43,284 bases of DNA from Planctomyces sp. GTDB lineage: Bacteria; Planctomycetota; Planctomycetia; Planctomycetales; Planctomycetaceae. Under the pieces are notes generated by a model, which was not told the DNA's origin, ran no database searches, and saw only the letters and a program-made list of their open reading frames with translations. The stretch lies in contig JANNDA010001144.1 in assembly GCA_031387195.1 (NCBI GenBank), positions 1 through 43,284 on the forward strand, given 5' to 3'. How positions within the stretch are numbered: position 1 is the stretch's first letter; each line of letters opens with the position of its first letter. Below are positions 7,383 to 42,983 of the stretch, piece after piece. The position numbers and the translations under genes are program-made.

Positions 7383-9617
7383 ATGATGTCGGATCAGCCT
7401 ACCGTTTCGCCCACCGAACCTGTGATTCACCGGTCTTCTTCGCGGTGGCCGATATTCGGCATGATCGTTCTGGCGGGGCTGGCGGTTTGCGTGTCGTTGT
7501 TGAATCGACCGCGCGTTCCTTCGCTGCTGCTAGAAAACACGCTGATCGCGGCCGATGAAAAGACTGAAACGACGACGGCTAAACCCGCCAAGAAAGAGAC
7601 GAAGCCAGCCACGAAGAAATCGGCAGGCGACACAAAAGCTGACGACCCGAAAGAAGACGGAGCGGAAAAGAAGGGTTTGGAAAATCCGTTCCCGCGACGG
7701 TTCAAGTTGTCCGGTGATGAACTTTCCGGCGGAGTCGAGTGGTTGAACACGTCGGGCGAGATCGAGCTGAAAGATCTGCGTGGCAAAGTGGTTTTGCTCG
7801 ACTTCTGGACTTATTGCTGCATCAACTGCATGCACATCCTGCCGGACTTGAAGTTCCTCGAACACAAGTACCCGAAGGAGTTGGTCGTGATCGGCGTCCA
7901 TTCGGCGAAGTTTGATAACGAGAAAGATTCGGAGAACATCCGCCGAGCCGCATTGCGGTATGAGATTGAGCATCCGATCGTCAACGACGCTGACATGAAG
8001 ATCTGGCGCGGCTTCGGCGTGAGAGCGTGGCCGACGATCGGGCTCATTGATCCCGAAGGTTATTTTTGTGGCGTCGCATCGGGAGAAGGCAATCGTGAAC
8101 TGCTCGACGAGGTCATCGCCAAGTTGATCGCGTATCACCGCGCGAAAGGGACTTTGGACGAGACTCCGGTGCAATTCGATCTCGAACGGAACCGCGTCAA
8201 ACCGGGGCCGCTGCGTTTCCCTGGCAAGGTCTTGGCCGACGAAGCTTCGAATCGCCTCTTCATCACTGACAGCAATCACAATCGGATCGTGATTACTTCG
8301 CTTGAAGGAAAGCTGCTCGACGTGATCGGCAGCGGCACCGCCGGGGCTACGGACGGCAATTACAAAACCGCGACCTTCTTCCGTCCGCAGGGAACGGCAC
8401 TGGTCGGCGACAACTTGTTTGTGGCCGATACCGAGAACCACATGCTGCGAGTCATTGACTTGAAAGCGAAGAAGGTCACGACGCTCGCGGGGACGGGGAA
8501 GCAAGCTCAGTTCCGAGATCGAGGCGGATCGCTGCGTAAAACGGCGCTCAACAGCCCGTGGGCGATCTCGCATATCGACGGGACGTTGTACATCGCGATG
8601 GCCGGGCCGCATCAGTTGTTTTCCCATGAGATCGGTTCGGACGAGATCACCGTCTTCGCCGGCAGCGGTCGTGAAGACATTTTGAATGGGCCACTTTCCG
8701 AATCCGCGTTCGCGCAGCCTTCGGGGATTTCTGTCGGCAATGGCAAGGCGTTGTATGTCGCCGACAGCGAAGGATCCTCGATTCGTAAAGTGACGCTCGG
8801 CTCCAAGGGCGAAGTGACGACGGTCGCTGGAGCATCGGACTTGCCTCAAGGGCAGACGTTGTTCGCCTTCGGTGACATTGATGAAGTGGGCGGCAGTGCT
8901 CGATTTCAACATCCGCTCGACGTGTTGTTTCACGACGGGGCGCTCTTCGTCGCCGACAGCTACAACCACAAGGTGAAGCGGATCGATCTCACCAGCCGCA
9001 AAGTGACGACGATCCTCGGCACAGGCAAATCGGGATCAGGGTTGGACCCCTTAAAGTTGGCAGAGCCTGCGGGTCTTACGGCTGTGAAGAACAAGCTCTT
9101 TATTGCCGACACGAACAATCATCGCATCCTGGTGGCCACTTTGCCGTCGGGTGACGTGAGCGAACTGAAGATCGACGGCTTGCAGCCACCTCCTCTTCCG
9201 AAAGATTCCGATGATGTGGCGGAAGGCAAGGAAGTCATCTCCGTTCCCGCACAAGTCCTCGCGAGCGGCGAAGCCTTGAACTTCAGCGTCAACTTCAAAT
9301 TGCCCGAAGGCTACAAGCTCAACAAGTTGGCGAAGGTGACCTACAAGTTGGAAGCCGTTGGTGACCAAAGCCTCGTTGCCGCTGATCAACTCAAAGCTCG
9401 TAAGGTCGCTGAGGTGAAAGAAGACGCCGCCGTGATCAGCATTCCGCTCGCCAAGAAAGAGGGTGACGCGAAGTTGTCACTCTCCCTGACGTTTTCCTAC
9501 TGCCGAGACGGCGTCGGTGGTGTCTGCAAAATCAAGACGGTTCGCTGGAGCATTCCGGTGCAGGCATCGGCCGCAGGGAAAGCAACCTCGATCAAGTTGG
9601 AAGCGGCGGCTGAATAG
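7383..9617 (+). CDS. Membrane-anchored thioredoxin-like + NHL-repeat beta-propeller protein (NHLRC2-like)
   Basis: There is an N-terminal TM segment (WPIFGMIVLAGLAVCVSLL) and a Lys-rich linker. The stretch LLDFWTYCCINCMHILPDLKFLEHKYPKELVVIGVHSAKFDNEK...HPIVNDADMKIW is very close to my recollection of the human NHLRC2 thioredoxin-like domain. It is followed by repeated NHL blades (LFITDSNHNRI, LFVADTENHML, LYVADSEGSSI, LFVADSYNHKV, LFIADTNNHRI). Confidence 0.9.
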   Translation: MMSDQPTVSPTEPVIHRSSSRWPIFGMIVLAGLAVCVSLLNRPRVPSLLLENTLIAADEKTETTTAKPAKKETKPATKKSAGDTKADDPKEDGAEKKGLENPFPRRFKLSGDELSGGVEWLNTSGEIELKDLRGKVVLLDFWTYCCINCMHILPDLKFLEHKYPKELVVIGVHSAKFDNEKDSENIRRAALRYEIEHPIVNDADMKIWRGFGVRAWPTIGLIDPEGYFCGVASGEGNRELLDEVIAKLIAYHRAKGTLDETPVQFDLERNRVKPGPLRFPGKVLADEASNRLFITDSNHNRIVITSLEGKLLDVIGSGTAGATDGNYKTATFFRPQGTALVGDNLFVADTENHMLRVIDLKAKKVTTLAGTGKQAQFRDRGGSLRKTALNSPWAISHIDGTLYIAMAGPHQLFSHEIGSDEITVFAGSGREDILNGPLSESAFAQPSGISVGNGKALYVADSEGSSIRKVTLGSKGEVTTVAGASDLPQGQTLFAFGDIDEVGGSARFQHPLDVLFHDGALFVADSYNHKVKRIDLTSRKVTTILGTGKSGSGLDPLKLAEPAGLTAVKNKLFIADTNNHRILVATLPSGDVSELKIDGLQPPPLPKDSDDVAEGKEVISVPAQVLASGEALNFSVNFKLPEGYKLNKLAKVTYKLEAVGDQSLVAADQLKARKVAEVKEDAAVISIPLAKKEGDAKLSLSLTFSYCRDGVGGVCKIKTVRWSIPVQASAAGKATSIKLEAAAE

Positions 9618-9775
9618 TGTGGCGCGACGCTCCGCGTCGCGAATGAATCACGACGCGGAGCGTCGTGAAGAATTGACGTGGGATAGGCTTCCAGCCTGTC
9701 ATCTCAGCCCGAAAACATGACAGGCTGGAAGCCTATCCCACGAAAAATTCACAACCTCGGAGCGTCGTGCCACAC
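9617..9775. repeat. Composite nested palindrome cluster (outer inverted repeat, two small GACGC-N3-GCGTC hairpins, one perfect 26-bp-stem hairpin)
   Basis: The outer arms are gtgtggcgcgacgctccg (9617-9634) and cggagcgtcgtgccacac (9758-9775), complementary with 1 mismatch. Two small hairpins are cgcgacgc-tcc-gcgtcgcg (9623-9641) and cacgacgc-gga-gcgtcgtg (9649-9667). The perfect stem is cgtgggataggcttccagcctgtcat (9677-9702) / atgacaggctggaagcctatcccacg (9717-9742) with a 14-nt loop. Confidence 0.9.
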
Positions 9776-9812
9776 TAGCCCGGCTTAGTCGCCCTTGAAG
9801 AGATTGCTGACG

Positions 9813-10295
9813 ATGTCCGAACTCACTCACTTTGACGAATCCGGTGCGAGTCGCATGGTGGATGTGGGCTCGAAAGAAATCACCTTACGGTTGGCTCGCG
9901 CTGTTGGCTTTGTGCGAATGCAGCCAGCGACGCTGGAACTCATCCGCAATCGACAGGTCTCGAAGGGTGACGTCTTCGAGGTCGCTCGGTTGGCGGGGAT
10001 CATGGCCACGAAGCGAACCGACGAACTCATCCCGCTGTGTCACTCGTTGGGTCTCGACAGCGCGAAGATCGAGTTCGAGATTGTCGATAGCGCCACAGTG
10101 AAGATCGAATCGACCGTCACGCTTCACGGTCGCACCGGCGTCGAAATGGAAGCGCTCACCGCCGTGAGCATCGCCGCGCTGACGATCTACGACATGTGCA
10201 AAGCTGTTGATCGAGCGATCTCGATTGGCCCTATCGAGTTGCTCGAAAAATCCGGAGGTCGAAGTGGTCACTGGATTCGCACACAGCAGGAGTAG
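9813..10295 (+). CDS. moaC: Cyclic pyranopterin monophosphate synthase accessory protein MoaC
   Basis: [30 protein letters not shown]...[27 protein letters not shown]...[24 protein letters not shown] is the typical MoaC sequence. ATG 9813 is preferred over the TTG at 9795. Confidence 0.92.
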
Positions 10296-10373
10296 GTCAG
10301 CCTTTCCTGGCTGCCCCGATTAACCATCGACGTTATTTCGCACATTCGGGTCAGGCTAGAAAGCCTGACCTAC
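10292..10373. repeat. 82-bp double-hairpin element bounded by GTAGGTC ... GACCTAC
   Basis: The left arm is gtaggtcagcctttcctggctgcccc (from 10292; it contains the moaC TAG stop at 10293-10295). The right arm is gggtcaggctagaaagcctgacctac (to 10373) and includes the perfect hairpin ggtcaggct-agaa-agcctgacc (10349-10370). The reverse complement of the right arm matches the left arm at 21/26. Confidence 0.8.
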
Positions 10374-17061: not shown

Positions 17062-20000
17062 ATGCGTCAGCAACACTGGCTTCGAGCGGTTCTGGTGGCT
17101 TTGGCGATGGGAGCGGGAATCACGGGAGTGCGACAGCCGCAACTGGCTGCCAGCGAGATCGGGTTCGTCGAAGACTTCGCTCTCGCGTTGGATCGCACGA
17201 TTGCCTTGAAGCAACTCGTGCCGGGGACCGAGGACTTCTATTACTACCATTGCCTGCACGCGCAGCAGACCGAGCAATTCGACAAGGTTGAACCGCTCGT
17301 CACGCAGTGGATGCAGCGGCTGGGGCAGACGCCGCGCGTGAATGAGATCCTCGCGCGACAGGCGTTGCTGACGTATGACAAAGACCCGCAGAAGACGTTG
17401 GAGTTCATTCGCAACAAGCTCGGCGTGCAGTTCGGGCATCAGAAGGAAGAACTCGGCGTCGAACCGAATTTGCCGACGAAGGTCGATCCGCAGTGGATTA
17501 GCCGAGCCACGCTCAAGCAGCAGGCGTTGCGACACGGGAATTTGAGCCGATTTGAGGATGCGGCGCTCGACTGGCTCGTCAACGAAAACCTCGACCCGGA
17601 TCAACGGCGGGAATTGTTGTCGCGAATGAATCGGCCGGACTATGGGCCGCTCGTCAAGTTGGTTATCGACGATATCAACCATGCGAATTCCGGCAGCTTC
17701 GGGCAGTTCAACATTCATCGGCTGCTGACGAAGCGGCAGCTCGCCGAGTGCTTGAAGCTCAAGCCCGACTTGATCAACAACCAGCATTGGGTCGTCGCGT
17801 CGCTCATCAAATTGCAGCCGGGACCGGATGAGGACTGGCAGCACGACGCGAAGATCATGGCCGGTTATCTCGACCGAGTGTGGTCATTCGCCAGCGGATT
17901 GCCGCCGGCGCAGAACTCGCTGAAGGCACAGACGCTGTATCACCGACTGTGGCTCGATCGCTCGCAAGGGCTGTTCGATAAGGAGCGGTTTCTGGCGTAT
18001 CTGAAACTCCCTCGATCCGTCGGTTACGGAGCGAAGGCGTATCTCGAATCGGAAGAGGTGAAGCACCGCGCGGCTGACTTGAACGCCGACTTGCGGCCAG
18101 CAACCCTCTTCGCGCCGGTCGGCAATGACGAACCGCTCGTGCGGAGTTATTTGCAGCACTTCCTGCTCGACGTGCCGAACACGAAAGAGTTTGACCCACT
18201 GATCAACGACACGTATTTGAAGCATCTCTTTGCCGAGACAAAGATCGTCAACGGACTCGGCGAACCGGAACAGTGGGCGGCGCAATTGCCCGCCGCCGCG
18301 TTCCAACAATTGAAGCAGCGGATCGACATTGATTTCGATTTCGCGAACAAGACGACCTACAGCGCGGACGATGCCGTCAGTCTCGATCTGCATGTGAAGA
18401 ACGTCGGCACGCTGATCGTGAAGGTGTTCGAGATCAACACGCGGAACTACTACCGCGAGCATCTCAAGGAAGTGGACACCGACGTCAATCTCGACGGCCT
18501 CGTCGCCAACAAAGAGACGACCCACACCTACAACGACTCGCCCTTCCGCCGCATGAAGCGGCGGTTCGATTTCCCCGAACTGAAGAAGCCGGGCGTGTAC
18601 GTCATCGACTTCATCGGCAACGGCCGCAGCAGCCGAGCACTCGTGCGAAAAGGGAAGCTCAAATTCCTGACTCGCACGACGACCGCCGGGCAACTCTTCA
18701 CGGTGCTCGATGAGCAGAACAAAAAGCTGGACGACGCACGCATTTTGCTGAGCGGCCACGAATACACGCCGAGCAAAGACGGCACGATTCTGGTCCCGTT
18801 CACGCATCAACCGGGCCGGCAGCCGATTGTTCTCGTCGGGCGGACGGCAAAAGCTGAAAAGGACCGAAAGGACCAACGGGATGTGAAGGAGCACGAGTAT
18901 GCGTGCCTCGATTACTTCCAACATGAGGCGGAAACGTACGCCCTCTCGGCGGGCATCTTCGTTGATCGCGAATCGTTACTGACCCGCAAGAAAACGAACG
19001 TTGTCATGCGTCCGCAACTGACGCTCAACGGTACGCCGGTGTCGCCGAGCGTTCTCGAAGAGGTCAAGCTGCGGATCGTTTCGACGGACCTCGACGGCGT
19101 TCCGTCATCCACCGAAGTTCCGAACTTCAAACTGTTCGACGACCGCGAGTCGGTGCATGAATTCCAAGTGCCGCCGAGGACTCAGTCGTTGCAGTTCGTG
19201 TTGCAGGCGAAGGTCCAGAACCTGAGCCTCAATCAAAAGATCGACCTCGCCGTCGGTGAAGCGTTCCAGTTCAACGAGATCGAGAAGACCGAACGCATTG
19301 AAGACCTGCACTTACTCCGCACGATCGACGGCTACTTCGTCGAACTGCTCGGCAAGACCGGCGAACCGAAAACGTCGCGGCCCGTGCAGGTCATCTTGAA
19401 ACACCGCGACTTCCGCGATCCGGTTCACCTCACGCTGAAGTCCGACAAGCTCGGACGCCTCTCGCTGGGACAACTCGACGGGATCGCGGCGATCACCGTC
19501 ACGGGACCGGAGGGAACTCAGCACGCTTGGCCGATCCGCCACGACGAGCATGTCTTCACGCAGTCGCTGCATGGCCGAGTCGGCGAAGTACTGACGCTGC
19601 CGTACCTCCCCGTAGGTCGGGCACTCGTGCCCGACGTTAAAGCCGCTGATGTGGATCGTGCGAACGATCCGGGCAGTCGGGCAGGAGTGCCCGACCTACA
19701 GCAAGATATTTCACTCCTCGAACTGTGCGGTGATTCGTTTCTCATCGGGCATCCCGACAAGGTCACGCTCAAGAACGGACTCCTCACAATCAGCGGTTTG
19801 CCCGCCGGCGACTTCGATCTCTGGCTGAAAGCGAGCAACAAGCACATTCGCATTCGGATCGCTCCGGGTGAAACGAAGCACGGTTATGTGCTCGGCCAAA
19901 CGCGGCAGTTGGAAACGCGCGCGTTGCCCGCGTTGCAGATTGCCTCGATCACGCAGGACGACAAAGAGCTGACGATTCAGCTCAGCAACGTCAGCAAGTT

Positions 20001-23000
20001 CGCGCGAGTGCATGTCTTCGCGACGCGGTTCGTCCCAGCGTTTGCGGCGGGGAGTCACTTGTCGAAAATCATCGTGGCCGAGCCGTATGCGATCACGAAC
20101 TCGCCCGCCGAATCGGTCTATCTCGCGGGACGGAACATCGGCGACGAATACCGTTACATCATCGACCGCAAGTACGCGAAGAAGTATCCGGGCAACATGC
20201 TCGAACGCCCGTCGCTGCTGCTCAATCCGTGGGTTGTGCGGACGACGGAAACCGGCGAGCAAGTGGCGGTTGGCGGCGATGAGTTCGGTGCGAAAGGTGT
20301 CGGACTCGGTCGCGGTGCAAATCGTGGTGAGGCAAAACAGGCCGCAGCCGCAGCGGCCGGAGACTTCGCGAACCTCGACTTCCTCGGCGAAGCGTCCGCG
20401 ATCTTCCTCAATCTCGTGCCGGACAAAGAGGGGCGAGTCACCGTCGATCGCAAAGCGCTCGGCGGTCATCAGCACATACACATCGTCGCCTGCGATCCGC
20501 TCAGCACGACGTCACGCAGCGTGGCCCTCAAGCCGGTCGAGACGCATTTCATTGATCTCCGTTTGGCGAATGGGCTCGACTCGAAGCAGCACTTCACGCA
20601 GCAGAAGCAGATCAGCATCGTCCGCGCCGGTGAGCCGTTTACGCTGGCCGATATCGCGACTTCGAAGTTCGAAGCTTACGACAGTCTGTCGCGAGTTTAT
20701 CTGCTGTTCTCGACGCTGACCCGCGACCCGAAGCTCGCCGAGTTTCAGTTCATCCTCAACTGGCCGAAGCTCAAGCCGGAAGAGCAACGGACGATGTATT
20801 CGAAATTCGCCTGCCACGAGTTGAACGTCTTCCTGGCGAAGAAAGATCCCGCGTTCTTCAAGGCGGTCGTGCTGCCGTACCTGGCCAACAAAAAGGACAA
20901 GACTTTTGTGGATCGTTGGCTGCTGAGCGAGAAGCTCGATTCGCACCTGCAACCGTGGTCGCACGGGCAACTCAATACGGTCGAGCGAATCTTGTTGGCA
21001 CAGCGCGTCGCCGGTGAAGGCCCGAAGACGGCGCGGCACATCGACGACTTACAACGCTTGCTACCTCCCGACATTGACCGCTTCTTGCACCTGTTTGATA
21101 CCGCCGCGAAGGGGAGCGCGTTGGAAACGAGCGATGCACTTGGATTGAAAGGCGCGTTGGTCGAACAACTCAAAGAGGTTGAACTCAAAGCGGCTTTCGA
21201 TGCTCCACCACAATCGGAGACCAGCGGAGCGGCGAGCGGGGCTGCTGCTCCCGCACCTGTGGCCGCGAAGAGTGGCATGCTGAGATTCGCGGCTCCGGCA
21301 GCCGGCAAACCCGCCGAGATGCAGGACGCACGTCGCAAGCTGTCTGAGCGACAAGAAGTGGCCGAGAAGGCCAAATCACAATCCATGATGAAGAAGCGAG
21401 AATCGGGCCTCGCTCGCGACGGCAAGGCGGACGAAGATCGGCTCAGTCGTTTGAGCGATGAGTCAGAGGCCAAAGACAAAGCCATTGTCTTCTTTGAAGA
21501 GAACGAACAACTCCTCCGCCAAGTCCGGCAGCTTTACCGCAAAATGGACCCGACCAAAGAATGGGCCGAGAACAACTACTACAAGCTGCTGATCGCCGAT
21601 CAGCACGCGGGGCTGGTCACGGTCAACGCTTTCTGGCGCGATTACGCTCAGCACGATCCCGCTGGCGAAAAACCGTTCCTCAGTACGAACATCGCCGAGG
21701 CGTCGCGCAACTTCACCGAGATGATGCTCGCGCTGGCGGTGCTCGATTTGCCCTTCGAGGCGGAGAAGCATGAATCCAAATTCGATGGCCCGAAGATGAC
21801 GCTCGCTCCCGGCAGCCCGATGATCGTCTTCCACGAAGAGGTCAAACCGGCCAAGAACGCGGCAGCCGCTGTGCCAATTCTCGTCAGCCAAAACTTCTTC
21901 AAGCACGGCGATCGACATCGACAAGAAAACGGCGAGCAGATCGACAAGTACGTCGCCGAAGAATTCCTGATTCACACTGTCTACGGCTGCCAAGTGGTCG
22001 TGACGAACCCCTCGTCCGCTCGGCAAAAGCTGACGCTGCTGCTGCAAGTGCCGCAAGGGGCGCTGCCGGTCATGAACGGGCAGCCGACTCGCAGCGTGCA
22101 TGTCGACTTGCAGCCGTATCACACGCAAACGCTGGATTACTACTTCTACTTCCCCGCCGCCGGGAAGTTCCCACACTTCCCGGTTCACGTCGCGAAGAAC
22201 GGCGAACTGATCGCCTTCGCCGCGCCGACCACTTTGAACGTTGTCGATAAGCCGACCAAGATCGACACCGAAAGCTGGGACTACGTTTCGCAACACGCTT
22301 CCGCCGAAGACTGCCTCGCGTTTCTGACCAAACACAACGTTCACGGCTTGAACCTCGAACGCATGGCCTGGCGGATGCACGAATCAAAATTCCTCGACGC
22401 CGCGCTGAGCCTGCTCGCCGCGCGACACGCTTATCACCCGACATTGTGGAGCTACGGCCTCAAGCACAACCACGTCGCCGCGATCCGTGAGTTCCTGCAA
22501 CACACAGACGGCTTCGTCAACGAATGCGGCGGTCGGCTCACAAGCCCGCTGCTGACGATCAACCCGGTCGTGCGTCGGACTTACGAGCACCTCGACTACA
22601 AGCCGCTGGTCAATTCTCGCGCTCACCGCCTCAGCCAGCGGCGGCACATCGTCAACGCGGTCTTCAACGACCAGTACCATCGCACGCTGCAACAGCTCGC
22701 GCACCAGCGAGCCTTATCCGACGACGACCTGATGGTCGTCACGTACTACCTGCTGTTGCAGGACCGCATCGAAGAGGCGCTCGCAACATTCGCACGCGTG
22801 AACCCCGATCGGCTCACCACACGGCTGCAACACGATTACTTCACGGCGTACCTCGACTTCTTCAACGACGACCCGAAGACCGCGCGAACCATCGCCGCGA
22901 AGTACGCCGACTACCCCGTCGATCGCTGGCGTGACGCCTTCGTGGCGATCACCGCGCAACTGGCAGAAGCGGACGGAGCCGGTGCCAAGCAGATCGACAA

Positions 23001-23670
23001 GGACGATCGCAACCAAGAACAAACGCAACTCGCGGCGACCGATCCGAACTTCGATTTCACGGTCGAAGCGAAGCAACTCACGATCAATCATCAGAACTTG
23101 GACTCCGTCCGCGTGAGCTATTACTTGATGGACGTCGAACTGCTCTTCAGCCGCAACCCATTCGTCCAACAATTCAGCGGGCAGTTCAGCCTGATTAAGC
23201 CGAACCACGTCGCCACGATCGGCCTCACACAAGCCGGAGTCGCCGGAGAGAAACCGCAACTCGACAAAGAGGGCAAACCGATTCCCCGCGCGGGGACCAC
23301 GAAGATCGACCTGCCGAAAGAACTGCACAACCAAAACGTCCTCGTCGAAATCACCGGAGCTGGCCAAACGAAAACGCAGGCGTATTACTCACACTCGCTT
23401 GCCGTGCAGGTCATCGAGAACTACGGGCACGTCAAAGTGACTCACGTGCAAACCGGCAAGCCGATTTCGAAAGCCTATGTGAAGGTCTACGCCCAACGTC
23501 CCAACGGCAGCGTGCAGTTCTACAAAGACGGCTACACCGATCTGCGCGGCCGCTTCGATTACGCCTCGCTCAACACCAACAATCTCGACGCCGTCAGCAA
23601 GTTCGCGGTACTGGTGATGAGCGAAGACCATGGTGCCTTGGTCAAGGAGGCAAACCCGCCGAAGCAGTGA
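17062..23670 (+). CDS. Very large (2,202 aa) secreted protein of unknown family, with a C-terminal carboxypeptidase-regulatory-like (prealbumin-fold) domain
   Basis: Uninterrupted ORF 16873..23670. ATG 17062 is preceded by gagaaagagg and gives a classical signal peptide MRQQHWLRAVLVALAMGAGITGVRQPQLAA|SE. There are many beta-sandwich-like segments, an Ala/charged low-complexity coiled region (~21180-21480) and a C-terminal HVKVTHVQTGKPISKAYVKVYAQRPNGSVQFYKDGYTDLRGRFDYASL. Confidence 0.85.
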   Translation: MRQQHWLRAVLVALAMGAGITGVRQPQLAASEIGFVEDFALALDRTIALKQLVPGTEDFYYYHCLHAQQTEQFDKVEPLVTQWMQRLGQTPRVNEILARQALLTYDKDPQKTLEFIRNKLGVQFGHQKEELGVEPNLPTKVDPQWISRATLKQQALRHGNLSRFEDAALDWLVNENLDPDQRRELLSRMNRPDYGPLVKLVIDDINHANSGSFGQFNIHRLLTKRQLAECLKLKPDLINNQHWVVASLIKLQPGPDEDWQHDAKIMAGYLDRVWSFASGLPPAQNSLKAQTLYHRLWLDRSQGLFDKERFLAYLKLPRSVGYGAKAYLESEEVKHRAADLNADLRPATLFAPVGNDEPLVRSYLQHFLLDVPNTKEFDPLINDTYLKHLFAETKIVNGLGEPEQWAAQLPAAAFQQLKQRIDIDFDFANKTTYSADDAVSLDLHVKNVGTLIVKVFEINTRNYYREHLKEVDTDVNLDGLVANKETTHTYNDSPFRRMKRRFDFPELKKPGVYVIDFIGNGRSSRALVRKGKLKFLTRTTTAGQLFTVLDEQNKKLDDARILLSGHEYTPSKDGTILVPFTHQPGRQPIVLVGRTAKAEKDRKDQRDVKEHEYACLDYFQHEAETYALSAGIFVDRESLLTRKKTNVVMRPQLTLNGTPVSPSVLEEVKLRIVSTDLDGVPSSTEVPNFKLFDDRESVHEFQVPPRTQSLQFVLQAKVQNLSLNQKIDLAVGEAFQFNEIEKTERIEDLHLLRTIDGYFVELLGKTGEPKTSRPVQVILKHRDFRDPVHLTLKSDKLGRLSLGQLDGIAAITVTGPEGTQHAWPIRHDEHVFTQSLHGRVGEVLTLPYLPVGRALVPDVKAADVDRANDPGSRAGVPDLQQDISLLELCGDSFLIGHPDKVTLKNGLLTISGLPAGDFDLWLKASNKHIRIRIAPGETKHGYVLGQTRQLETRALPALQIASITQDDKELTIQLSNVSKFARVHVFATRFVPAFAAGSHLSKIIVAEPYAITNSPAESVYLAGRNIGDEYRYIIDRKYAKKYPGNMLERPSLLLNPWVVRTTETGEQVAVGGDEFGAKGVGLGRGANRGEAKQAAAAAAGDFANLDFLGEASAIFLNLVPDKEGRVTVDRKALGGHQHIHIVACDPLSTTSRSVALKPVETHFIDLRLANGLDSKQHFTQQKQISIVRAGEPFTLADIATSKFEAYDSLSRVYLLFSTLTRDPKLAEFQFILNWPKLKPEEQRTMYSKFACHELNVFLAKKDPAFFKAVVLPYLANKKDKTFVDRWLLSEKLDSHLQPWSHGQLNTVERILLAQRVAGEGPKTARHIDDLQRLLPPDIDRFLHLFDTAAKGSALETSDALGLKGALVEQLKEVELKAAFDAPPQSETSGAASGAAAPAPVAAKSGMLRFAAPAAGKPAEMQDARRKLSERQEVAEKAKSQSMMKKRESGLARDGKADEDRLSRLSDESEAKDKAIVFFEENEQLLRQVRQLYRKMDPTKEWAENNYYKLLIADQHAGLVTVNAFWRDYAQHDPAGEKPFLSTNIAEASRNFTEMMLALAVLDLPFEAEKHESKFDGPKMTLAPGSPMIVFHEEVKPAKNAAAAVPILVSQNFFKHGDRHRQENGEQIDKYVAEEFLIHTVYGCQVVVTNPSSARQKLTLLLQVPQGALPVMNGQPTRSVHVDLQPYHTQTLDYYFYFPAAGKFPHFPVHVAKNGELIAFAAPTTLNVVDKPTKIDTESWDYVSQHASAEDCLAFLTKHNVHGLNLERMAWRMHESKFLDAALSLLAARHAYHPTLWSYGLKHNHVAAIREFLQHTDGFVNECGGRLTSPLLTINPVVRRTYEHLDYKPLVNSRAHRLSQRRHIVNAVFNDQYHRTLQQLAHQRALSDDDLMVVTYYLLLQDRIEEALATFARVNPDRLTTRLQHDYFTAYLDFFNDDPKTARTIAAKYADYPVDRWRDAFVAITAQLAEADGAGAKQIDKDDRNQEQTQLAATDPNFDFTVEAKQLTINHQNLDSVRVSYYLMDVELLFSRNPFVQQFSGQFSLIKPNHVATIGLTQAGVAGEKPQLDKEGKPIPRAGTTKIDLPKELHNQNVLVEITGAGQTKTQAYYSHSLAVQVIENYGHVKVTHVQTGKPISKAYVKVYAQRPNGSVQFYKDGYTDLRGRFDYASLNTNNLDAVSKFAVLVMSEDHGALVKEANPPKQ
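19612..19699. repeat. 88-bp double-hairpin element (GTAGGTC...GACCTAC type) embedded in frame in the 2,202-aa CDS
   Basis: The left arm is gtaggtcgggcactcgtgcccgac (19612-19635) and the right arm is gtcgggcaggagtgcccgacctac (19676-19699). The reverse complement of the right arm equals the left arm at 23/24. Each arm is itself an 8-9-bp palindrome. It is translated as VGRALVPDVKAADVDRANDPGSRAGVPDLQ. Confidence 0.85.
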
Positions 23671-23673
23671 GGA

Positions 23674-23796
23674 CGGGAGCGCAATAACTTCCCGATGTCA
23701 CGTTAGCACGACGCGCAAGCGAGTGGTTCCTGCAATGACCACTCGCTTGCGCGTCGTGCTAGTTTCCCCATGCACCGAGAAGTTATTGCGATCCCG
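23674..23796. terminator. 123-bp composite palindrome between the two convergent giant genes (candidate bidirectional terminator or repeat element)
   Basis: The inner perfect 24-bp stem is tagcacgacgcgcaagcgagtggt (23704-23727) / accactcgcttgcgcgtcgtgcta (23738-23761) with a 10-nt loop. The outer imperfect arms are cgggagcgcaataacttcccgatg (from 23674) and catgcaccgagaagttattgcgatcccg (to 23796), about 21/24 complementary. There is no clear U-tract. Confidence 0.6.
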
Positions 23797-23847
23797 TTCC
23801 TAAGGTTTGGATATCTGGCTCAAGGGCTACCCGCGTCGAAGAATTTC

Positions 23848-26800
23848 TCAGACCAGCAATTTGCTGAAATCGAAGGTGAAGGCTTCGTCGATTTCGGCGA
23901 GCGTGCTGAGGACATCGTTACCGGAGCCCCCCGCGATGGTGTCACGCTCTGCACCGCCATCGACGTTATCGTTGTCGTCTCCACCAAGGCAGACATCGCG
24001 TCCGGCACCACCGCGGAGCGTGTCGCTGCCGTCGTCTCCTAGCAACACATCGTTACCGGATTGACCATCCAGGAAATCGCTGCCATCACCACCGGAGATG
24101 ATGTCGTTGCCGGAGCCGCCGGTGATGGAGTCTGCGCCAGCTCCACCGCTGATGGTGTCGTCGCCCGTACCACCGTCGATCGTATCGCTGCCGGTGTCTC
24201 CAAAGATCTTGTCTCGGCCATCACCTCCGGTGATTAGGTCGGCACCGATTCCGCCATCGAGCCAATCGTTGCCGACACCACCTGAGATCGTGTCGAAACC
24301 ATCGCCGCTGCTGATGGAATCGTCGTCGTTACCACCATTGATGTTGTCGGCGGCAGCACCTCCGATGATCGTGTCTTTTCCGGAGCCGCCACTGATGAGG
24401 CCGCCAACGGGACTCGACCGAATGCGATCGGGGCCGGTGCCTCCAGTCAGTGTCACGGGGCCATTGAAGCCACTGGCGTCAATGAGGTTTCCGAGAGAAT
24501 TCGATGCGATCAAATTGGCGCGTTCGATGGATGAGAGCGTGTCCGAGCCGTTTCCGGTGAGCAGCGTCGGGGTCAGGACTTGGTCGAACCGCGAGGTTTG
24601 AATGACCAAGTCGATGCCGTTGCCTCCTTCGAGGAGATCACTGCCCGCACCACCCAGGAGTGTGTCGTCTCCGTCGCCTGCGTGCAGAATGACATAGCCG
24701 GGAGTAAACCGACTGGCGTCGAGTTTGTTCTTGAGGGAATTGCCGAACAGCTCCGCGTGCTCGATGCTCGCCAGTGGGTCAGTGCCGTTCCCGACGATCA
24801 GATTCGTTGCCAGGACGAAGTCGCTCAAGGTCGAGTCGATGATCCAGTCGATGCCCGTGCCGCCGTCGATGGTGTCGTTGCCGGTTCCAGCGAGCACCGT
24901 GTCGTTGCCTGATCCGGCATAGATCTTGTCGTTGCCGTTTCCGGTTTCGATCCGGTTGTTCGCTCCGTTTCCGGTGATGATGTCATGGCCGACTGTCGTG
25001 AAGACATTTTCTAAGTTCGCTGCTTGACCCGCTCCGCCGGTGATCAGTTTGCGATTTCGGTGAGTGGCTGTGGCGATGTCACTCGTCAGGTTCACGACGA
25101 CCCCGGCAGGCGGTGTCAGGCCCCTGAAATCGAGCAAGTCGATCCCTTCGTTGGCCATTTCGATGACCACATCGGTTTCAAGCACAGACGCATTGAAGAA
25201 GAGGTAGATGTCGTCCCCTTGGCCACCGACGATCGTGTCGCTTCCGGCGGCTCCGGTGAACGTGTCTTGGCCATTGCGTCCTTCAAAGCGATTGTTGGCC
25301 ACGCTGCCGAGGAACGTGTCCTGGCCCGCGCCGCCGATCGCGTTTTCGACATTCACCGCTTGGCCGGCGGCTCCGGTGATGACCGTGCGATTGAGGTGCG
25401 TGCCCAGTGCGTTGTCTTTGGTCAAATCGACCAGCACGTTGATCGTGTCGGGGAGCGCGCTGAAGTCGAGCCAGTCGGTTCCTTCGCCAGTCAGTTCAAT
25501 CACCGTGTCGATTTCTGCGATGTTGCAAGCGGCGAAGACATAGAAGTCATCTCCGAGTTCACCCAGCAACCGATCGTTCCCCTCGTCGCCGGTCAGTGTG
25601 TCATTGCCGCTGCCGCCGTTGATCGTGTCGTCGGCGAGTCCACCAAAGAGCGAATCATTTCCGAACGTCCCCGCCGGATTGCTCTGGGTCAGTGAGAAGA
25701 ACAACCCGCTGACAAACGTCATCACGGCGTTGTCCCCGACGATCCGATCGGTGTCGCCTGCGCCACGGATCGTGTCGTTGCCGAAGCCGCCGATGAGGAA
25801 GTCGAGGCTGGTTCCGCCGGTGATGTCGTCGTTGCCACCAGAGGTCGTGTCGCTGGTGGCGATATTCGTGAGCAGGCCACCGCTGAAATTGGCCGTTCCG
25901 TGATCACCGACGATCACCGCCTTCGACGTGCTTCCCGTCGCATTGATCGTGTCGCCGCCGCTGCCGCCGAAGATGACATTCTGGCCGGCGATGGACGTGA
26001 TGGTGTCGTTGCCGCCGAAGGCCACCGAGTTGGTTTGAACGTGAGTCAGCACACTGCCCGTGAAATCCGCCGAGCCGTTGTCGCCGAGGATCACGACATC
26101 CGCACTGCTCGCTGAGACGTTGATCGTGTCCGCACCGCTCCCGCCGAAGATCACTTCGCGACCGGCGGTCGATGTGATCGTGTCGTTACCGCCGTGAGCC
26201 GCGTCGCTGGTTTGAATGTGCGTCAGGACTCCGCCGATGTAATTGGCCGAGCCGTTGTCACCCAAGATCACGGCATCCGCCATGCTGGCCGACGTGGCGA
26301 TGTTGTCCGCACCGCTGCCACCGAAGATGACGTCGCGACCAAGTCCTGAGCTGATCGTGTCGTTGCCGCCGATGGTGGCTGAGACGCTGATTGCGAGGAA
26401 ATCAGTATGCACACGACCGTCGGTCTGATTCTCCGGCGTGGTCGAAATGCGATAGCGGCTGGTGGCGTCCAGCGGGATCGACCAGTTGGGCGAGACGGTC
26501 AGGCTCGTCGTCGTGTTGCCGGTGATGAGACGCGGTTCTTGAGTGAAGCCGGTGCCGTTGTTGATTGAGACATACAGGCCGACGAGTCCGATGTCGTTGC
26601 CGTCGGGAACAGGGAAGTTGGCCGCGCTGTCATTCAGCGTGCTCTGGTTGGTGAAGGGACCGGTTGCCAGCGCGGTGATCGGATCGGGAGCGAAACCGAG
26701 TCGCGTGACAATCGGTCGGTTGCCGTTGGTATCGGCGTCGCCGAAGAAATCGACTCGGCCCATGTCGCCGAAGATGACGTCGTTGCCGAGTCCGCCAGTG

Positions 26801-29800
26801 ATCGAATCGTTGCCCGCTCCACCGAAGAGGAACAGCGGCAATGTTGAGCCGCTGGCATCGACGACGTCGTTTCCGCCTCCGGCATCGAGCGCGAAGCGGC
26901 CGTCGGCGAGCTTCACGACTTGCAGAGTCATTGCACCTGTCGGCAACGAATCCCAATTGCCGAGGAGCGTCAGGACATTGTTCGTGTGCGAGACAATTCG
27001 CAACTCTTCGTCATTGTCAGCACGGAAGACCTGCCCGCGCAGATCCAGCCCGGCGAACGGCGAGCCGGTGAAGGTGATCTGCGAGCGACCGTCCACAAGA
27101 TTGCTGGCCGAGCTAAACAGCGGATGCAGCACCGCATCATCCTGCGTGATTGATTCAACAGCATTCAAGCGGATCGTCACGTTGTCGCCGGTGATGTTGG
27201 GCTGATTCGGGTCAGGCTGATCATCGCCGGTGTGCGCGAACGTCCAAGCTTGGTAGCCGTCTGAACGAGTCGGCGTGCCGAGCACCTTCAGGTTGTTGAA
27301 GCCGCGACCGAGGTTGAGATCAACGACCTCCAATTGATTGAAGGTGATCCCATACGTCTTGAACTGCCCATGTAGCACGACACCATCGACGTTGTCCGGT
27401 CCCATGTGGAACCCGGTGATCGTGTTCGCGGTCAGGACACCGGAGCTGTCGGCGGGACTGTCTTCGTCGTGAACGAAGATCGTGTCGATGCTCTGCTCTT
27501 CGTCGGCGAAGAAGTTGACGCTCTGCGTGGTGATTGCGTACTTCGTGATGTCGGAACGCAGACCTGCTCCCAAATCGAACGAGTCATTCAGCGTCAGGAC
27601 CGTCGTGCCAGCCACCGTCCCTGCAGCTTGTGCGAGGATCAGTCGGAACTGATCGAGTGCCGTGTTGTTGATCGCTTGTGTGACGGTCAACGTCTTGCCG
27701 ACGAGGGTCGCCAGCAAAACGCCGGAACCTAAGTACGTCTGCAAGTTAGCGGTCGTCACTGTCATGTGCGTCGCATCAACGAAGCCGACGACGTTGCCGG
27801 TCGAGGCGTTGATGTTCGTCTCGCCGGGAAGAACGAGCGCGCTGTTGACGTTTAACGAGCCTTCGTCTCCGCCACCGTTCACGGTCAGCGGGCCGAGGAT
27901 GCGGCTGAGCGTGTTCGGGTGCGGCGCGAAGACTTGTTTGTCACCGCCATCGACAAAGTTGTCGTCGATCGCGGTTGTTGTCACGACGACCGGTCGATCC
28001 CAGTCGCCTGCGGAGAACGTGACAGTCAGAGTGCCGTCTCCGTTGTTCGTGACGCGCGAATCGCTGCTCGACACTGTGACTTGCACCGCCTCGTGACGAA
28101 TGCCTCCCGTGCGGGTGGTGACGGTCATTTCCGGCGTCACGATCACGATCACGGGATGCGTCGGTTCGGCGGTGAGGACCACGTCGTAGGTGTCCGAACT
28201 CATGTTCTGCGTCGTGATCGTAGCGATCTGGAACGGAGTCGGGCTGATCGTACCGCTGAGCATGTAGGTTCCCGTGCGAGTGCTGTAACCCGTCGCGGCC
28301 AGGTAGTACGTCCCGGTCACAGTCGGCGTGTAGATGATGCGTGATTGCAAGCCGAAGTAGTCGTCATTGAAGGCCAGCTCGGTCGAGCCGTTGGTGCCGA
28401 TCAGCCGCAGCATCGGATCGGTGAGCGAGTTCCCGTTGAGGTCGAAGGTGTAGGTGAAGCCGACTTCCATCGAGATGCGGAACCAATCTTGATCGCCACT
28501 GCTATCGACGTTGCCGTTTGCCGAACCGGGCAGAACAAGACTCGCCCCAGTCGCGGTGCTGGCGGGAATCTCGCCAGCGACAGACGTGTTGAGCCGATAC
28601 GTCCCCGTCGTGGCGTCGATGTAGGAGCCAGCATTGAGCGTGAATGTGCCATCGGCCGTTGGCGTGTAGACCAGATGCGAACTCAGCCCCGGCCCACTGT
28701 CGTCGTCAGAGGCCACCTGAGTGAGATTGCTGTCGAACAAGCGGAGGAACGTATCCCGCAGCGTTCCTTGGCCAGAATCAGAGCCGTCCATGTCGAACGT
28801 GTAGGTGTTCCCCGCCTTAAGCGTCACCAGATAAGTGTCTCGTTCGGCGGCGACGGAAATCTCACCGCTGCGTGAACCGGGAACGGAGATGCTCGCAGGA
28901 GACGGCGGTGTCGAGATCGTAAAAGTCGTCGTGCTGTCAGGCAGGACGGTCCATTGATGGAACACGGTGACGGTGTTGTTCGTGTTGCTGATGACCGTGG
29001 CGGAGGTTGTCGGCGTCACGCCTCCCTTCGCACTTTGGATGGCTCCCGTGCCGCTGGTGAGCGTGATGGTCCGGCCCACAAGGCTGTCGGTCACGAACGT
29101 CCCGCCGGTGACATTCAGGGTCACGATCTGTGCTCCCCCTTCGACCACATCGGTTGAGCCGCCCGTTTCGCGAACAAGGACCGTCGGGGCGTCATCGTCG
29201 TTGATGCGGACGAGAACCGGATTGGTCACTGCGGCGGCGAATCCGTCGATTGTGTAGGTGTAGGAAACGGCGATCGATCCGGTCACCGCCTCAAACTTTC
29301 CTTCGGCCAGCGCATCGGGCACCGCTTGCAAGAAGACAATCTTGTTGCCGACCACGGCGAATCGGGACGGATCGCGAGCGACAAGATTGACCGTCACGGT
29401 CACCGCCGGAGTCGCGTCCGGCGTTTGTGGCAACCCAACGTAGAACGTGGGGCGTACCGGTGCGAAGTTGACCGTCGTCGGGACCGCCAGATCGGCGTTC
29501 CCTCCCGACAGACCAAAGTTGAGCAACCCGGTGTGTTCCCCTTCGCGAACAATGTCTTGAGCCGCGCTGAGCGTGACGGTCTGCGGAGCGGTTGAGCTGA
29601 AGCTGAGCGACGAGGCTGACGGCGAAAGTTGTCCGTCCGGGTTCGACAGCGCGACGGTCACGGTCCCCGATGGTGTCTTCGTCAGTTGAATCGTGAGCGT
29701 GTCTCGTTCGCCCGTTTGATTGCCGTCGCCCCCTTCGATCACCGCCGTCCCGTCGCCGCTTTCGGTGACGATGATCCCCGCTTGGTCGTTGTCGTTGATC

Positions 29801-32800
29801 TGCACCGACACGCCAGGAACGGCGAGTCCGTCGAAGAGTTCGATGCGATATACGCTCGCCGTCGAAACGGTGATGTTGCCGTTGAGCGTCAGCGTGGTCG
29901 CGGTGTTTGACAAGATGAGCCGCTGCTGTCCGCCGCCGGGTCCGCCGACAACCTGCAAGATGCGGCCACGCAGCCCTTCGCCTGCCGTCGGGAACAATGT
30001 GGTTCTCGCGGTGTCGGTGAAGGTGGTTCCGGTGCTGCTCGTCGAAGGCCGACCGACGAGCGCGTCATCAATGCGAATGAGATACGAGCTTTCTTTCGTC
30101 GGCGAATCATCAATGTTCCACGGACGATCGACCGTCACGATCGAGCCGCCGGAGATTCCGGTCACGAAGCGCTGCTGACCCGCACCCGGCCCGCCGGTGA
30201 TCGTCAGCTTGCGACCAATCAGGCTGTCGTTGAGGTTGGTCGTGTCTTGAACCAGAGTCGTCGTCGCGCCGGCGGAACCATCGACGTTGAAGCGTGCTCC
30301 CGCTCCCGTCACGGAGAAGTTGGTCGAATCGTCGGTGAGCAAGTTGCCGTCTTCGGCACTGAGTTGCAGCAATTGGATCGGCGTTGAGGCGGTCACATTC
30401 AGCGGGTCCGTGATCGTCGTTGTCGATGGAGCGAGCACGACGAGCGTGCCGTTGTCGGCGCGATCGTCGGCAGTGACTCGCGTCAGGTTGGCCGCGTTGA
30501 TCGCGAGCGCGAGGCCGGAGGCAACTTGCGCGACGGAACTCACGCCGCTGTCCGGAACCGTGTACGTGACGAGCTGCTCGCCCAACTTGATTTGATACTG
30601 CTTGCCAGGCGTGATGGGGCCGCTGACGGTGATCGTCGATTGAATCATGCGCCGCGCGGTGACGTCTTGCAGAGGACTCGACGATGAGGCCGCTTGCTGA
30701 GCGTTGTTGACCGCCGTCTTGATCGCGTCCAACGTCGCGCTGACGTCTCCGCCCGCAGACGCTGTGACCGGAATGCTGTCGATCGTCAGCGTGTAAGTTC
30801 CTGTCGGTGTGCTCGTGATTTCGAGCAACACTTGCGTCGCTTTGGAAACGCTGGTCACGTTGGTTGCGGCGGTCATCTGGCCGGAGACCGAGCGGACATC
30901 GGCGACGACGATGTGGTTGATGACGCCGAAACGAACTCCCTCATCAGAGTTGTCGTCGTAAGCGAATGTCGGCGAGTCACCGAGTTCTGGCCGCGTGAGC
31001 AAGCCCGCCGCGTCCGTGAAGACCTGGCTCGTCGCTCCGACCGTGACGGTCTGCGGAATGAACCAGTTGTCGCGAGTGAACCGCAACGCGACCGACGTGC
31101 CGTCCGCCGAATTGATTGCACCCGGAGCCGGACTGCTGACGCTAAACGCGCGAGTTCGCAATTCACGTTGCTTCTCGGTCATCAACGGGGCGAGCGCTTT
31201 GACGAGGATGTCGGTCGTCGGTTGATGAGTCAGCACGACCGTGTACTGATCGGTCTGGCCCCCCTCGGCGATGATGGTTGCCCCGTCGCTCTGACGAATG
31301 ACGACGCCGGGTTCGTCGTTGTCGGCGACGTTGGCGGAGATGCCGTAAAGCTTCTGCGCGTCGTAACGCGGATCAACGCTCTCGACCCCGTGCGTGACGA
31401 TACCGCTGTGACCGAGCAGATCGTTGCTGTCCACCGGCGGCGTGGCTCCCGACATGTTGAACGTGTCGTTGCCGAGTCCGCCGAGAATCTCCGTCGCGAA
31501 CGTGGGACTCGTGCTCTGCACGAAGAAGCGATCGTCCCCTTCGGCCCCGTCGATTTTCAGCGATTCGATGTTCGCGAAATGCACGTTGAGTCCGGCACCG
31601 AAGACGCCGTTCTCTGTAATCACGAAGTCGTCACCGAACTCGGTCCCGATCGCGATGAGCGAATCGAAGCCGTCGCCGCCGTCGATGTTGACTGGTGCGT
31701 TGACCGCGTACTGAATCAGATCGCCCCCCGCACCGCCCGAAATGTCGGTGCGCGCTCGCTTCGAGTCTTCTGATCCGACGAGCGCGAACGCTTTGATTTG
31801 GAAGTTGTCGTTCCCTTCGTCGCCGTTCAACGTGAGCACCGCGAGGTTGTGATAAACGGTAAACGTGTCGCTCCCCGCTCCGCCGTTAATCGTCATCGGC
31901 GCGCTGACGCCGTTCGACAAGAAGCCGCGCGTCGTTTCGATCGTGGCGAACTCGTCCGCAATCGCGACGTTCGCGAAGTCGTGCGTCCGTTGCGAGCGGA
32001 AGATTTGCCCGATCTGGAATGTGTCATCCCCGTCATCGCCGTTGAGCACGACTTCTGCGGACGTGTCGTCGGAGACGAACGTGTCGTTGCCGAAGCTGCC
32101 GTTAATCGCGATCCGCTCGACGCCGATGTAGTGGATGACTTCCGCGTTGAGATCGTCGTTGAGCAGCGCGACGAACGCGCTCCCACCATCGGTGCTGGCT
32201 CGCAGCAGGATCTTGTCGCTGTTGACCGTGCCGGTGACTTGGAAGATGTCGGTCCCCACTTCCGAACCGGTATCGAGCACCGTGATAACGGAACTCGATT
32301 TACCGCCGTGATAGGTGATGAGGTAAGTGTCGCTGTCTTGCTGCCCGTTGAGCGTGTCGTTTCCTTCGCCGGAAATGATGACGTCCTTGTTGAACGGAAC
32401 TTTTCCCTCGTCAGGCACTTGAGCGCCGGTCAGGCCGTTGTCGCCATAGATTTCGTCGCTCGCTCCTTCGCCGTCCAAGCGATCGTTCCCCGCGCCGCCG
32501 GAGAGATAGTCGTCGTTCTGCGCACCGAAGAGCGTGTCGGCTCCCTCGTCGCCGTAGACGTAATCGCTGCCGAGTTCCCCGAAGATCACGTCGTCACCAG
32601 CACCGCCACGAATCGTGTCGCGGCCATCGCCGCCGCTCAGCATGTCGGCTCCTTCGCCACCCAGGATGAGGTCATTGTCCGCGTTGCCGTCGATCGTGTC
32701 CGCTCCGACGCTCCCATCAATCGTGTCGGCTCCGACGCCGCCGTCGATCGAATCCATATCGTTTCCGCCAGTGATCGAGTCATCGCCGGCGAACCCGCGA

Positions 32801-42641: not shown

Positions 42642-42943
42642 GTGATTTCCAATTCTAAAAAACCTTGGGCTCATCCGACCCAATGATACACAGACGCAAC
42701 TCGAAGCGATGGTCGATAATGGAAAATGGATTTGTCGAAGCATCTCAACAAGCGTGACATCGAAGGCGAACCGTCGCAGAAAATCGAGAATCTCAAAAGT
42801 CGTTTCGGATTTGTACAACTTCGCAACGGGTGCGCTCTGAGCCACATCCGCTTCGTCCTAGACGGATCGCTTTCGAGTGGCATCACATCGACTCGCTGGA
42901 AGTCATCCACTGACGATGCCAAACTCTCGCGCAACTTGGAAGT

Positions 42944-42983
42944 TGGGCACTCTTGCCCGACCCGTGACGGGCAAGAGTGCCCA
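42944..42983. repeat. Inverted pair of GGGCA-N4-TGCCCG units (15-bp-stem hairpin) in the S51/ilvD divergent intergenic region
   Basis: tgggcactcttgcccgac (42944-42961) and gtgacgggcaagagtgccca (42964-42983) share 16 nt as reverse complements. The stem is gggcactcttgcccg / cgggcaagagtgccc with an 8-nt loop. Confidence 0.85.

Follow-up and report, generated by a model that had tools for sequence, protein, structure and literature searches.

We have analysed a 43,284-nt stretch of planctomycete DNA (Planctomyces sp., GenBank assembly GCA_031387195.1, contig JANNDA010001144.1, forward strand; the whole stretch is referred to as the window), which contains a gene for a 2,202-aa protein and, within this gene and in frame with it, a palindromic element of 88 nt. 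The element is an inverted doublet of repetitive extragenic palindromes (REPs) of the GTAG-tagged type, comparable to the REP doublets forming hairpins that are known as REPINs, and it occupies a linker at which the orthologues of close relatives carry several other palindromes. The parts of the locus are the following.

17062-23670, plus strand: host gene of a conserved 2,202-aa Planctomycetota protein, with tandem beta-sandwich domains predicted around the insert
19597-19722, plus strand: insertion hot spot bounded by the conserved anchors L-P-Y-L-P and S-L-L-E-L; its linker measures 30 nt in most orthologues and 99 nt here
19612-19699, plus strand: whole element, 88 nt, two GTAG-tagged REP hairpins in inverted orientation, tags outermost (REPIN-like doublet)
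19612-19635, plus strand: left REP unit, the GTAG tag followed by GTCGGGCAC-TC-GTGCCCGAC, with a 9-bp stem
19636-19675, plus strand: spacer of 40 nt, with a small hairpin of its own (GGATCG-TGCGAA-CGATCC at 19653-19670); it encodes VKAADVDRANDPG
19676-19699, minus strand: right REP unit, inverted; the minus strand reads GTAGGTCGGGCACTCCTGCCCGAC, with an 8-bp stem and a 4-nt loop

Homologues of the host protein number about 1,500 and are all of Planctomycetota type; no family was found for the protein in Pfam or NCBIfam. An AlphaFold2 model of residues 720-1010, built on an alignment of 22 sequences and reaching a predicted template modelling score (pTM) of 0.34, consists of two beta-sandwich domains with a predicted local distance difference test score (pLDDT) of ~80-90. 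The insert corresponds to model residues 132-160, where pLDDT is below 50 at 135-156, and it follows the last strand of one domain and precedes the first strand of the other; according to the model it would thus occupy a low-confidence linker between two beta-sandwich domains. Foldseek brought the model together with tandem beta-sandwiches of the complement/alpha-2-macroglobulin type (Ig/macroglobulin) at a TM score of ~0.2, which indicates the fold class only.

A preliminary description of this DNA had recognized 24-nt terminal inverted repeats, each of them a hairpin in itself, and the repeat search bore this out. The arms (GTAGGTCGGGCACTCGTGCCCGAC at 19612-19635 and GTCGGGCAGGAGTGCCCGACCTAC at 19676-19699) are complementary at 23/24 positions with 40 nt between them, the pair is extendable to 33 nt at 85%, and each arm folds alone, the left one with a 9-bp stem and a 2-nt loop, the right one with an 8-bp stem and a 4-nt loop. 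REPs of the GTAG super-family carry their tag on the 5' side of a short G+C-rich stem-loop (PMC3733652), and a REPIN is an inverted pair of REPs which folds, together with its spacer, as one hairpin (PMC3116915). Both arms have the build of such a REP (an unpaired 5' GTAG or GTRG tag and a G+C-rich stem of 5-13 bp): the GTAG is followed by GTCGGGCA(C)-loop-(G)TGCCCGAC, with stems of 8-9 bp, and the left arm matches the motif GTAGGTCGGGCA-N4-TGCCCGAC, which is multi-copy in other genomes. The two arms also pair with each other, 19612-19635 with 19676-19699, in one long hairpin, as in a REPIN. The exact 12-mer GTAGGTCGGGCA is confined within the window to the element, which is at the same time the strongest local (short-range) inverted repeat of the 43 kb.

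The strong secondary structure that had been expected of RNA and DNA was found when 19600-19710 was folded. As RNA the minimum free energy (MFE) was -64.6 kcal/mol compared with -36.8 +/- 3.4 in 200 dinucleotide shuffles (z = -8.2, 0/200 as stable), and the DNA fold gave -37.6 kcal/mol (z = -8.1). It was likewise correct that the element starts at codon position 1 and is read without a stop: base 19612 is a first codon position of the open reading frame (ORF) begun at 17062, the translation VGRALVPDVKAADVDRANDPGSRAGVPDLQ is stop-free, and the read-through peptide comprises V851-L879 and the first base of Q880 (VGRALVPDVKAADVDRANDPGSRAGVPDL(Q); VGRALVPD...SRAGVPDL). Independent metagenome contigs cross the element with 0 differences, and it is present in independent assemblies, namely L201 (the L numbers denote loci fetched for comparison) and contigs of the runs X1, X2 and X3, in which the organism is represented at about 7-10x. 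No terminator-like site (a G+C hairpin followed by a U-run) was found at the element, and no Rfam match anywhere in the window.

No direct repeat that could be a target-site duplication flanks 19612-19699 (the borders are CCTCCCC, element, AGCAAGA), and the ends are self-folding GTAG-tagged REP hairpins, not terminal inverted repeats of the insertion-sequence type; for these reasons the element is a GTAG-tagged REP doublet, REPIN-like, and not a miniature inverted-repeat transposable element (MITE) with terminal inverted repeats and target-site duplication. The former proposal, a REP/MITE-like element which landed in a coding region or was exapted by it, is supported, except that the MITE part has to be given up and that a single landing is too simple, since different REP palindromes are found in the same linker of close relatives.

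In order to survey the linker, the anchors ...LTLPYLP and SLLEL... were located in the DNA of 114 orthologues, including those from a metagenome contig scan, which are at most 56% identical and served for this survey, not for close comparison. The distance from anchor to anchor was 30 nt in 61/114 orthologues against 99 nt in the window, on the basis of which a linker of 10 residues (G-x5-R-x-E-L) appears to be ancestral. Distant orthologues, which would have refuted the preliminary description had they carried the residues of the element, are without them. It was right that a loop has been added, but not about its size: in place of ~29 aa the net gain is ~23 aa, that is 33 versus 10 residues from LPYLP to SLLEL. 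The length of every measurable linker is a multiple of 3, and among these are at least 20 long linkers from several unrelated families; every linker that was translated is stop-free. This argues that the inserts are translated. At this position the orthologues with a 30-nt linker have no structure (MFE ~ -2 to -12 kcal/mol).

Most of the long linkers of other orthologues hold palindromes of different kinds at this place; the following forms were found.

L201 (protein 93% identical, the closest relative): same element as in the window, at the same codon
L129 and L282: GTAGGTTGGGCACTCTTGCCCGACC...GGTCGGGCA(A/G)GAGTGCCCAACCTAC
L281: GTAGGTTGGGACTCCGTCCCGACC...
L141: GTAGGTCAGCCTTTCCAGGCTGAC...
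L284: a single hairpin
L283: a 28-nt stub, GTAGGTTGGC...GCCAACCTAC
L190 and L131: GGCGAGCGGGGGGCGTTAGCCCCCCGG family
L138, L168 and L125: CGTGGGG... family
L121 and L151: 17 residues, non-palindromic

Among 13 orthologues whose identity outside the linker is 88-93% there are at least six unrelated linker forms, most of them palindromes of other REP families, and the forms are intermixed on a neighbour-joining tree, the internal branches of which are short. The contigs of co-occurring relatives in the source metagenomes part from the window exactly at 19601-19603, where they continue into GTAGGTCAGCC... and GTAGGTTGGGACTCC... When 115 copies of the gene (~760 kb) were scanned for palindromes with arms of at least 16 nt, 8 of the 12 intragenic hits fell into this linker; two others lie at residue ~587, one at ~2082 and one, weak, A+T-rich and probably due to chance, at ~109, and the remaining hits of the scan map at or past the 3' end of the gene. 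The comparison of these sequences shows that the linker is a hot spot of repeated insertion or replacement by palindromes of other REP families. Several metagenome-assembled genome (MAG) records titled 'Candidatus Kuenenia stuttgartiensis' (loci L121, L129, L061, L306, L369) have the same REP families and encode orthologues with 70% identity to this protein of Planctomycetaceae type; the organism names are probably wrong.

The arm types of the relatives occur outside the gene as well. The type of L281 is a high-copy REP with more than 115 stretches, nearly all of them in Planctomycetaceae, including genomes the orthologue of which bears another type, and the types of L141 and of L129/L282 have intergenic copies in the window itself.

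10292-10373, no strand assigned: intergenic REP doublet of a second GTAG family, GTAGGTCAGCC.../...GCCTGACCTAC; it shares its family, and parts of its spacer, with the element inside the gene of L141
42937-42990, no strand assigned: intergenic hairpin pair of a closely related REP, GTTGGGCACTCTTGCCCGACC; its match with the left arm of the elements inside the genes of L129 and L282 is exact over 21 nt

Both had been pointed out before, and both likenesses hold: the GTAGGTC...GACCTAC ends of the in-gene element are common to 10292-10373, and its GGGCA-N4-TGCCC core recurs in the hairpin pair formerly placed at 42944-42983, which extends over 42937-42990. The copies of this REP in the window are the in-gene one and one related pair at 42937-42990.

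A close pairwise comparison was possible with L201, at 90% DNA identity, where the gene differs from that of the window at 10.0% of all positions and at 20.9% of the third-codon positions. Differences between the two are few in the arms (1/48 positions) and frequent in the spacer (12/40; Fisher p = 4e-4), and none of the 16 third-codon positions of the arms is changed against 20.9% gene-wide (P = 0.023). As far as can be read from the sequences, this shows a spacer peptide without constraint, and it is the pattern of a REPIN, in which the REPs are more conserved than the spacer and change symmetrically; mirrored changes of the arms keep the long hairpin perfect in L282, L129 and L281. The conservation of the arms could be due to constraint by the hairpin or by the transposase that moves REPs, to conversion from other copies, or to chance.

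The motif GTAGGTCGGGCA-N4-TGCCCGAC was scanned in one genome per bacterial species; the counts given are lower bounds. At least 120 stretches with the motif were obtained in one scan and at least 118 in another, many per genome, often as inverted pairs and with a 4-nt loop typical of the lineage. Genomes with multiple copies include the Planctomycetales MAG DAIDHB01, two Tepidisphaeraceae MAGs, Neisseriaceae, Pasteurellaceae, Chloroflexota and others; dozens of copies per genome are present in the Tepidisphaeraceae and Planctomycetales MAGs, and ~96% of 272 hits lie outside long ORFs. The identical 20-nt core GTAGGTCGGGCA/TGCCCGAC was observed across Planctomycetota, Neisseriaceae, Pasteurellaceae, Cardiobacteriaceae, Chloroflexota, Verrucomicrobiota/Lentisphaerae, Zixibacteria and others, and only the 4-nt loop depends on the lineage.

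REPIN-like units of other bacteria owe their movement to a REP-associated tyrosine (HUH/Y1) transposase (RAYT), which is present in a single copy and acts on single-stranded DNA; the name RAYT was reportedly given by Nunvar et al. in 2010. In two of the fetched loci the motif flanks a RAYT gene. The first, in Glaesserella (L050, 2565-3149, minus strand), scored 197.6 bits on the NCBIfam model REP_Tyr_transpos (NF047646), the cut-off of which is 80, and the second, in Planctomycetales (L051, 6983-7864, plus strand), reached 75.7 bits on this model and also passes the Pfam model Y1_Tnp (PF01797). Multiple copies and association with RAYT genes in other genomes together make the arm sequence a bona fide REP. 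Uniqueness of the motif to this locus, which would have spoken against the preliminary description, is not borne out: in many other genomes it is a multi-copy and mostly intergenic repeat. When the window and 501 loci were searched by tblastn with the two RAYTs, such genes were present in L050, L051 and L062 only. The RAYTs of L050 and L051 are themselves barely alignable (35% identity over 43 aa).

About 4% of the 272 motif occurrences in the fetched loci are in frame in real genes, as listed here.

L062: HsdR, in the linker between HSDR_N and SWI2_SNF2, in frame
L352: inside ApbE, in frame
L306 and L369 (two orthologues): between DUF7133 and HEAT repeats, in frame
L083: S26 signal peptidase, in frame
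L109: PSCyt1/PSD3 protein, in frame
L355: histidine kinase, in frame
L361: multihaem cytochrome, in frame
L295: Big_12/13 protein, in frame

Further candidates (L077, L079, L030 and probably L300 and L015) were rejected as not really intragenic, being upstream extensions or intergenic read-through. In L015 (5636-7999, Neisseria sp. CCUG12390) three REP copies stand in a stop-free frame of 788 codons which joins a C-terminal fragment of HrpA (positions 1-97 of the 582 of DUF3418 only) to a GNAT acetyltransferase; this frame may reflect REPs clustered at a truncated hrpA and not a real fusion.

Taking these results together, we hold it very probable that an inverted GTAG-REP doublet resides in a tolerant inter-domain linker, where it is translated, is nearly neutral and occupies a site which has been filled and overwritten repeatedly. 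A REPIN-like copy would have come into the 30-nt linker between two beta-sandwich domains; only stop-free, in-frame versions would survive, and the ribosome would read through them, so that the flexible linker would be lengthened by ~23 residues without the protein being destroyed. The REP arms would stay nearly constant and the spacer with its peptide would drift freely, and in related species the same position would be filled, replaced or trimmed by palindromes of the resident REP families. The translation of the element is suggested by the frames of the linkers, and by analogy with other REPINs the doublet would have been moved by a RAYT of this genome. We infer that the effect on the protein is near neutral.

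Several observations weigh against this explanation. In the 43-kb window no RAYT gene was found by tblastn with two RAYT queries, and the exact arm occurs there in the element 19612-19699 alone. In the nearest genome, JAYUFI01, the only copy of this sub-type among the 80 of 118 stretches listed is the orthologous in-gene one, and therefore the family may be low-copy or extinct in this lineage. Three metagenomes compared with the 100-nt element alone returned its own locus only, the 24-nt arms being too short for the comparison used. Furthermore, a simple one-step insertion into the ancestral linker cannot yield the present sequence, because 88 is not divisible by 3; ~19 nt of the former linker must have disappeared or been exchanged. 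Finally, the conservation of the arms exceeds the average of the gene by a narrow margin only (P about 0.04-0.085).

It is conceivable, though we consider it doubtful, that the present element never transposed into the gene, that only one ancient insertion took place and that an older palindromic insert was overwritten later, either by ectopic conversion or recombination with other REPs or by conversion within the element that matched the arms to each other. The inserts of the GTAGGT...ACCTAC type would agree with this, as all of them share the 3' junction (CCTAC, then a conserved Arg/Gln codon) and most of them the 5' junction TTC/GTAGGT, and the arm types are intermixed among proteins that are 88-93% identical. 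In L282, L129 and L281 the two arms pair perfectly with each other in the long hairpin, whereas of the single-arm hairpins one contains a G-T pair and the other a C-A mismatch. GAYGTNGATCGYGCG (DVDRA) is common to the spacers of the window element and of the L141 element, the arms of which are different; the intergenic doublet at 10292-10373, however, shares parts of the spacer (ACGTCGAT, GTGCGAA, CGGGGCA), so that similarity of the spacers may be a trait of the family, and the DVDRA match was rejected as a proof of descent in place with replacement of the arms. Against this reading, unrelated families without a GTAG tag (L190, L131, L138) stand at slightly different offsets in the linker and need separate events, and plain orthologues with a 10-residue linker (P0016, P0018) nest among those bearing inserts.

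We regard it as a rather unlikely, speculative extension that the 30-nt linker is a true mutational landing pad, at which RAYT activity or REP-to-REP conversion keeps swapping the resident hairpin for those of the families active in each genome. REPINs would then be a recurrent, lineage-specific source of linker peptides, with a visible decay series and with a second site at residues ~587-613. At this second site of the host gene (18838-18900 in the window, residues ~593-613), which is empty in most orthologues, L201 (5039-5116) and L282 (2729-2803) have an in-frame GTGG-tagged doublet, CTCGTGGGGCACGTTTCCAACGTGCC...GGCACGTTGAAAACGTGCCCCACGAG (LVGHVSNV...GHVENVPHE). In the window the site holds an insert of 21 residues that is not palindromic and agrees with the doublet at its ends (CTCGTCGGGC...GAGCACGAG; LVGRTAKAEKDRKDQRDVKEHE), apparently a decayed remnant of it. 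A third variable site lies at window residues ~568-572, where P0023, P0025-P0028 and P0030 have inserts of 15-70 residues after HEYTP; these inserts include sequence of the ALRGEGPGVRG...PLPNSLP type, which looks like another translated palindromic repeat.

It also has to be considered whether the hairpin is kept for a role in the host, its REP origin being mere history: it could pause the ribosome at the domain boundary, mark a site of RNase processing, stabilise or segment the 6.6-kb message, or form a cruciform that binds gyrase or another protein. The contrast between arms and spacer with respect to L201, including the unchanged third positions of the arms, would suit such a role, but this conservation is equally expected from recent origin, from constraint at the level of the REPIN or from conversion. 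Strong palindromes do recur exactly at the domain boundary in several lineages, and REPs elsewhere have been reported to influence mRNA stability and gyrase binding (background in PMC3733652). A host role is nevertheless not needed, because the 61/114 orthologues with a 30-nt linker are without structure there and because close relatives have stubs (L283, L284) or non-palindromic linkers (L121, L151), which makes the structure dispensable; since a terminator-like tail and an Rfam family are missing too, we judge this role improbable.

Very improbable in our view is that the element is left untranslated, through removal in the manner of an intron or intein, translational hopping, or DNA excision in the expressing cells. 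A very stable hairpin within an ORF does resemble the structures at bypass sites, but the constraint of linkers to stop-free multiples of 3 exists only under read-through, and precise removal of 88 nt would shift the frame. Besides, there is no Rfam intron or ribozyme match, and in five metagenomes no contig with a joined, element-less form was found. An ordinary ancient coding sequence that is palindromic by accident, or an assembly artefact, has nothing but the intact ORF in its favour and is hardly credible in view of a fold that none of the 200 shuffles reached, the absence of these residues from most orthologues, the same arms being intergenic repeats in many genomes, and the presence of the element in independent assemblies. 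Diversification by a diversity-generating retroelement, an intein or intron, a terminator and an assembly artefact were all rejected on the evidence gathered.

With the translated REP doublet in a tolerant linker as the preferred explanation, the locus can be compared with known systems. The Rickettsia palindromic elements (RPEs), reportedly described by Ogata et al. in 2000, are palindromic repeats which stand in frame in many protein-coding genes, the added peptide being tolerated at the surface or between domains. They are ~100-150 bp long, belong to other sequence families and are found in the reduced genomes of obligate intracellular bacteria, and they are not known to be linked to a RAYT. 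The in-frame palindromic insert described here is like an RPE, a resemblance that is functional only. The E. coli REPs and bacterial interspersed mosaic elements (BIMEs) have a GTAG-type tag, an imperfect palindrome and inverted pairs, and TnpA(REP) is the model RAYT; their documented roles concern gyrase, integration host factor (IHF) and 3' stabilisation of mRNA. In E. coli they are not known to occur within genes. The present element differs from them in the sequence of the stem and in its intragenic position.

The nearest precedent are the GTAG-REP dimers catalogued by Di Nocera, De Gregorio & Rocco (2013, BMC Genomics 14:522, PMC3733652), some of which are in frame and encode 20-30 aa, in Opitutus terrae, Thioalkalivibrio, Thauera and others. 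The same study covers Planctomycetes as well as Opitutus terrae, a bacterium of the PVC group, notes different REPs at about one site in the recB genes of Xanthomonas, draws the link to the Rickettsia RPEs, and classes RPE-4 and RPE-6 as CGTC-type (PMC3733652). Our element is built like these dimers, with a GTAG tag and a stem-loop of 6-9 bp, inverted units, spacers of 20-100 nt, and mostly intergenic but sometimes in-frame copies (PMC3733652); even the reading frame recurs, as the uvrA gene of Thioalkalivibrio has VGRASARHAAASTGTASRAEARP (PMC3733652). The stem GTCGGGCA/TGCCCGAC was not found in the text or the supplementary tables of PMC3733652. Unlike in those cases, the host here is a giant protein of unassigned function and not a repair gene, and one 30-nt linker exists in at least six forms within orthologues that are 88-93% identical. 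With the REPINs of Bertels & Rainey (2011, PMC3116915) the element shares inverted REPs, a looser spacer, a single hairpin in single-stranded DNA or mRNA, symmetric changes of the arms, and a REP that flanks a single RAYT gene, here seen in other genomes (PMC3116915). From those populations, which are described for extragenic space (PMC3116915), it differs in being intragenic and in frame with the 2,202-aa ORF, and in this respect it is an atypical copy of the sort catalogued in PMC3733652.

Further repeats were observed in the window outside the gene. In the doublet at 10292-10373 the TAG of the first GTAG (10293-10295) is the stop codon of a MoaC-family gene (9795-10295), which the repeat thus supplies or overlaps. 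A nested intergenic cluster of palindromes at 9615-9777 includes a pair with perfect 26-nt arms, CGTGGGATAGGCTTCCAGCCTGTCAT (9677-9742), that resembles the in-gene insert of L125, and another nested cluster (23673-23797) is situated directly past the stop of the 2,202-aa gene. The heptamer CCGAACA is repeated five times in tandem at 42993-43027, between the REP pair at 42937-42990 and the ATG of the next gene at 43043. The host gene is adjoined by an ORF of 5,707 aa (23848-40971, minus strand), within which no strong palindrome was found.

It should be emphasized that in-frame GTAG-REP dimers are already known, both from the work of Di Nocera et al. (2013) and in the form of the Rickettsia RPEs, and that the present case adds a hot spot resolved in detail, in a giant planctomycete protein, where a series of decay stages can be seen. 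The locus is a clean and checkable case of selfish palindromic DNA that turned into protein sequence: at one codon position living relatives have the full REP doublet, a single hairpin, a 28-nt stub or non-palindromic linkers, and it can be used to study how REPs and REPINs enter genes, at what rate they are replaced, and how they decay into ordinary loops. Such inserts have practical consequences as well, since they break metagenome assemblies, the contigs of run X4 ending inside the element, and stretches such as VGRALLPD, SGILARP and GQECPTY in planctomycete proteins should be read as translated REPs and not as protein motifs.

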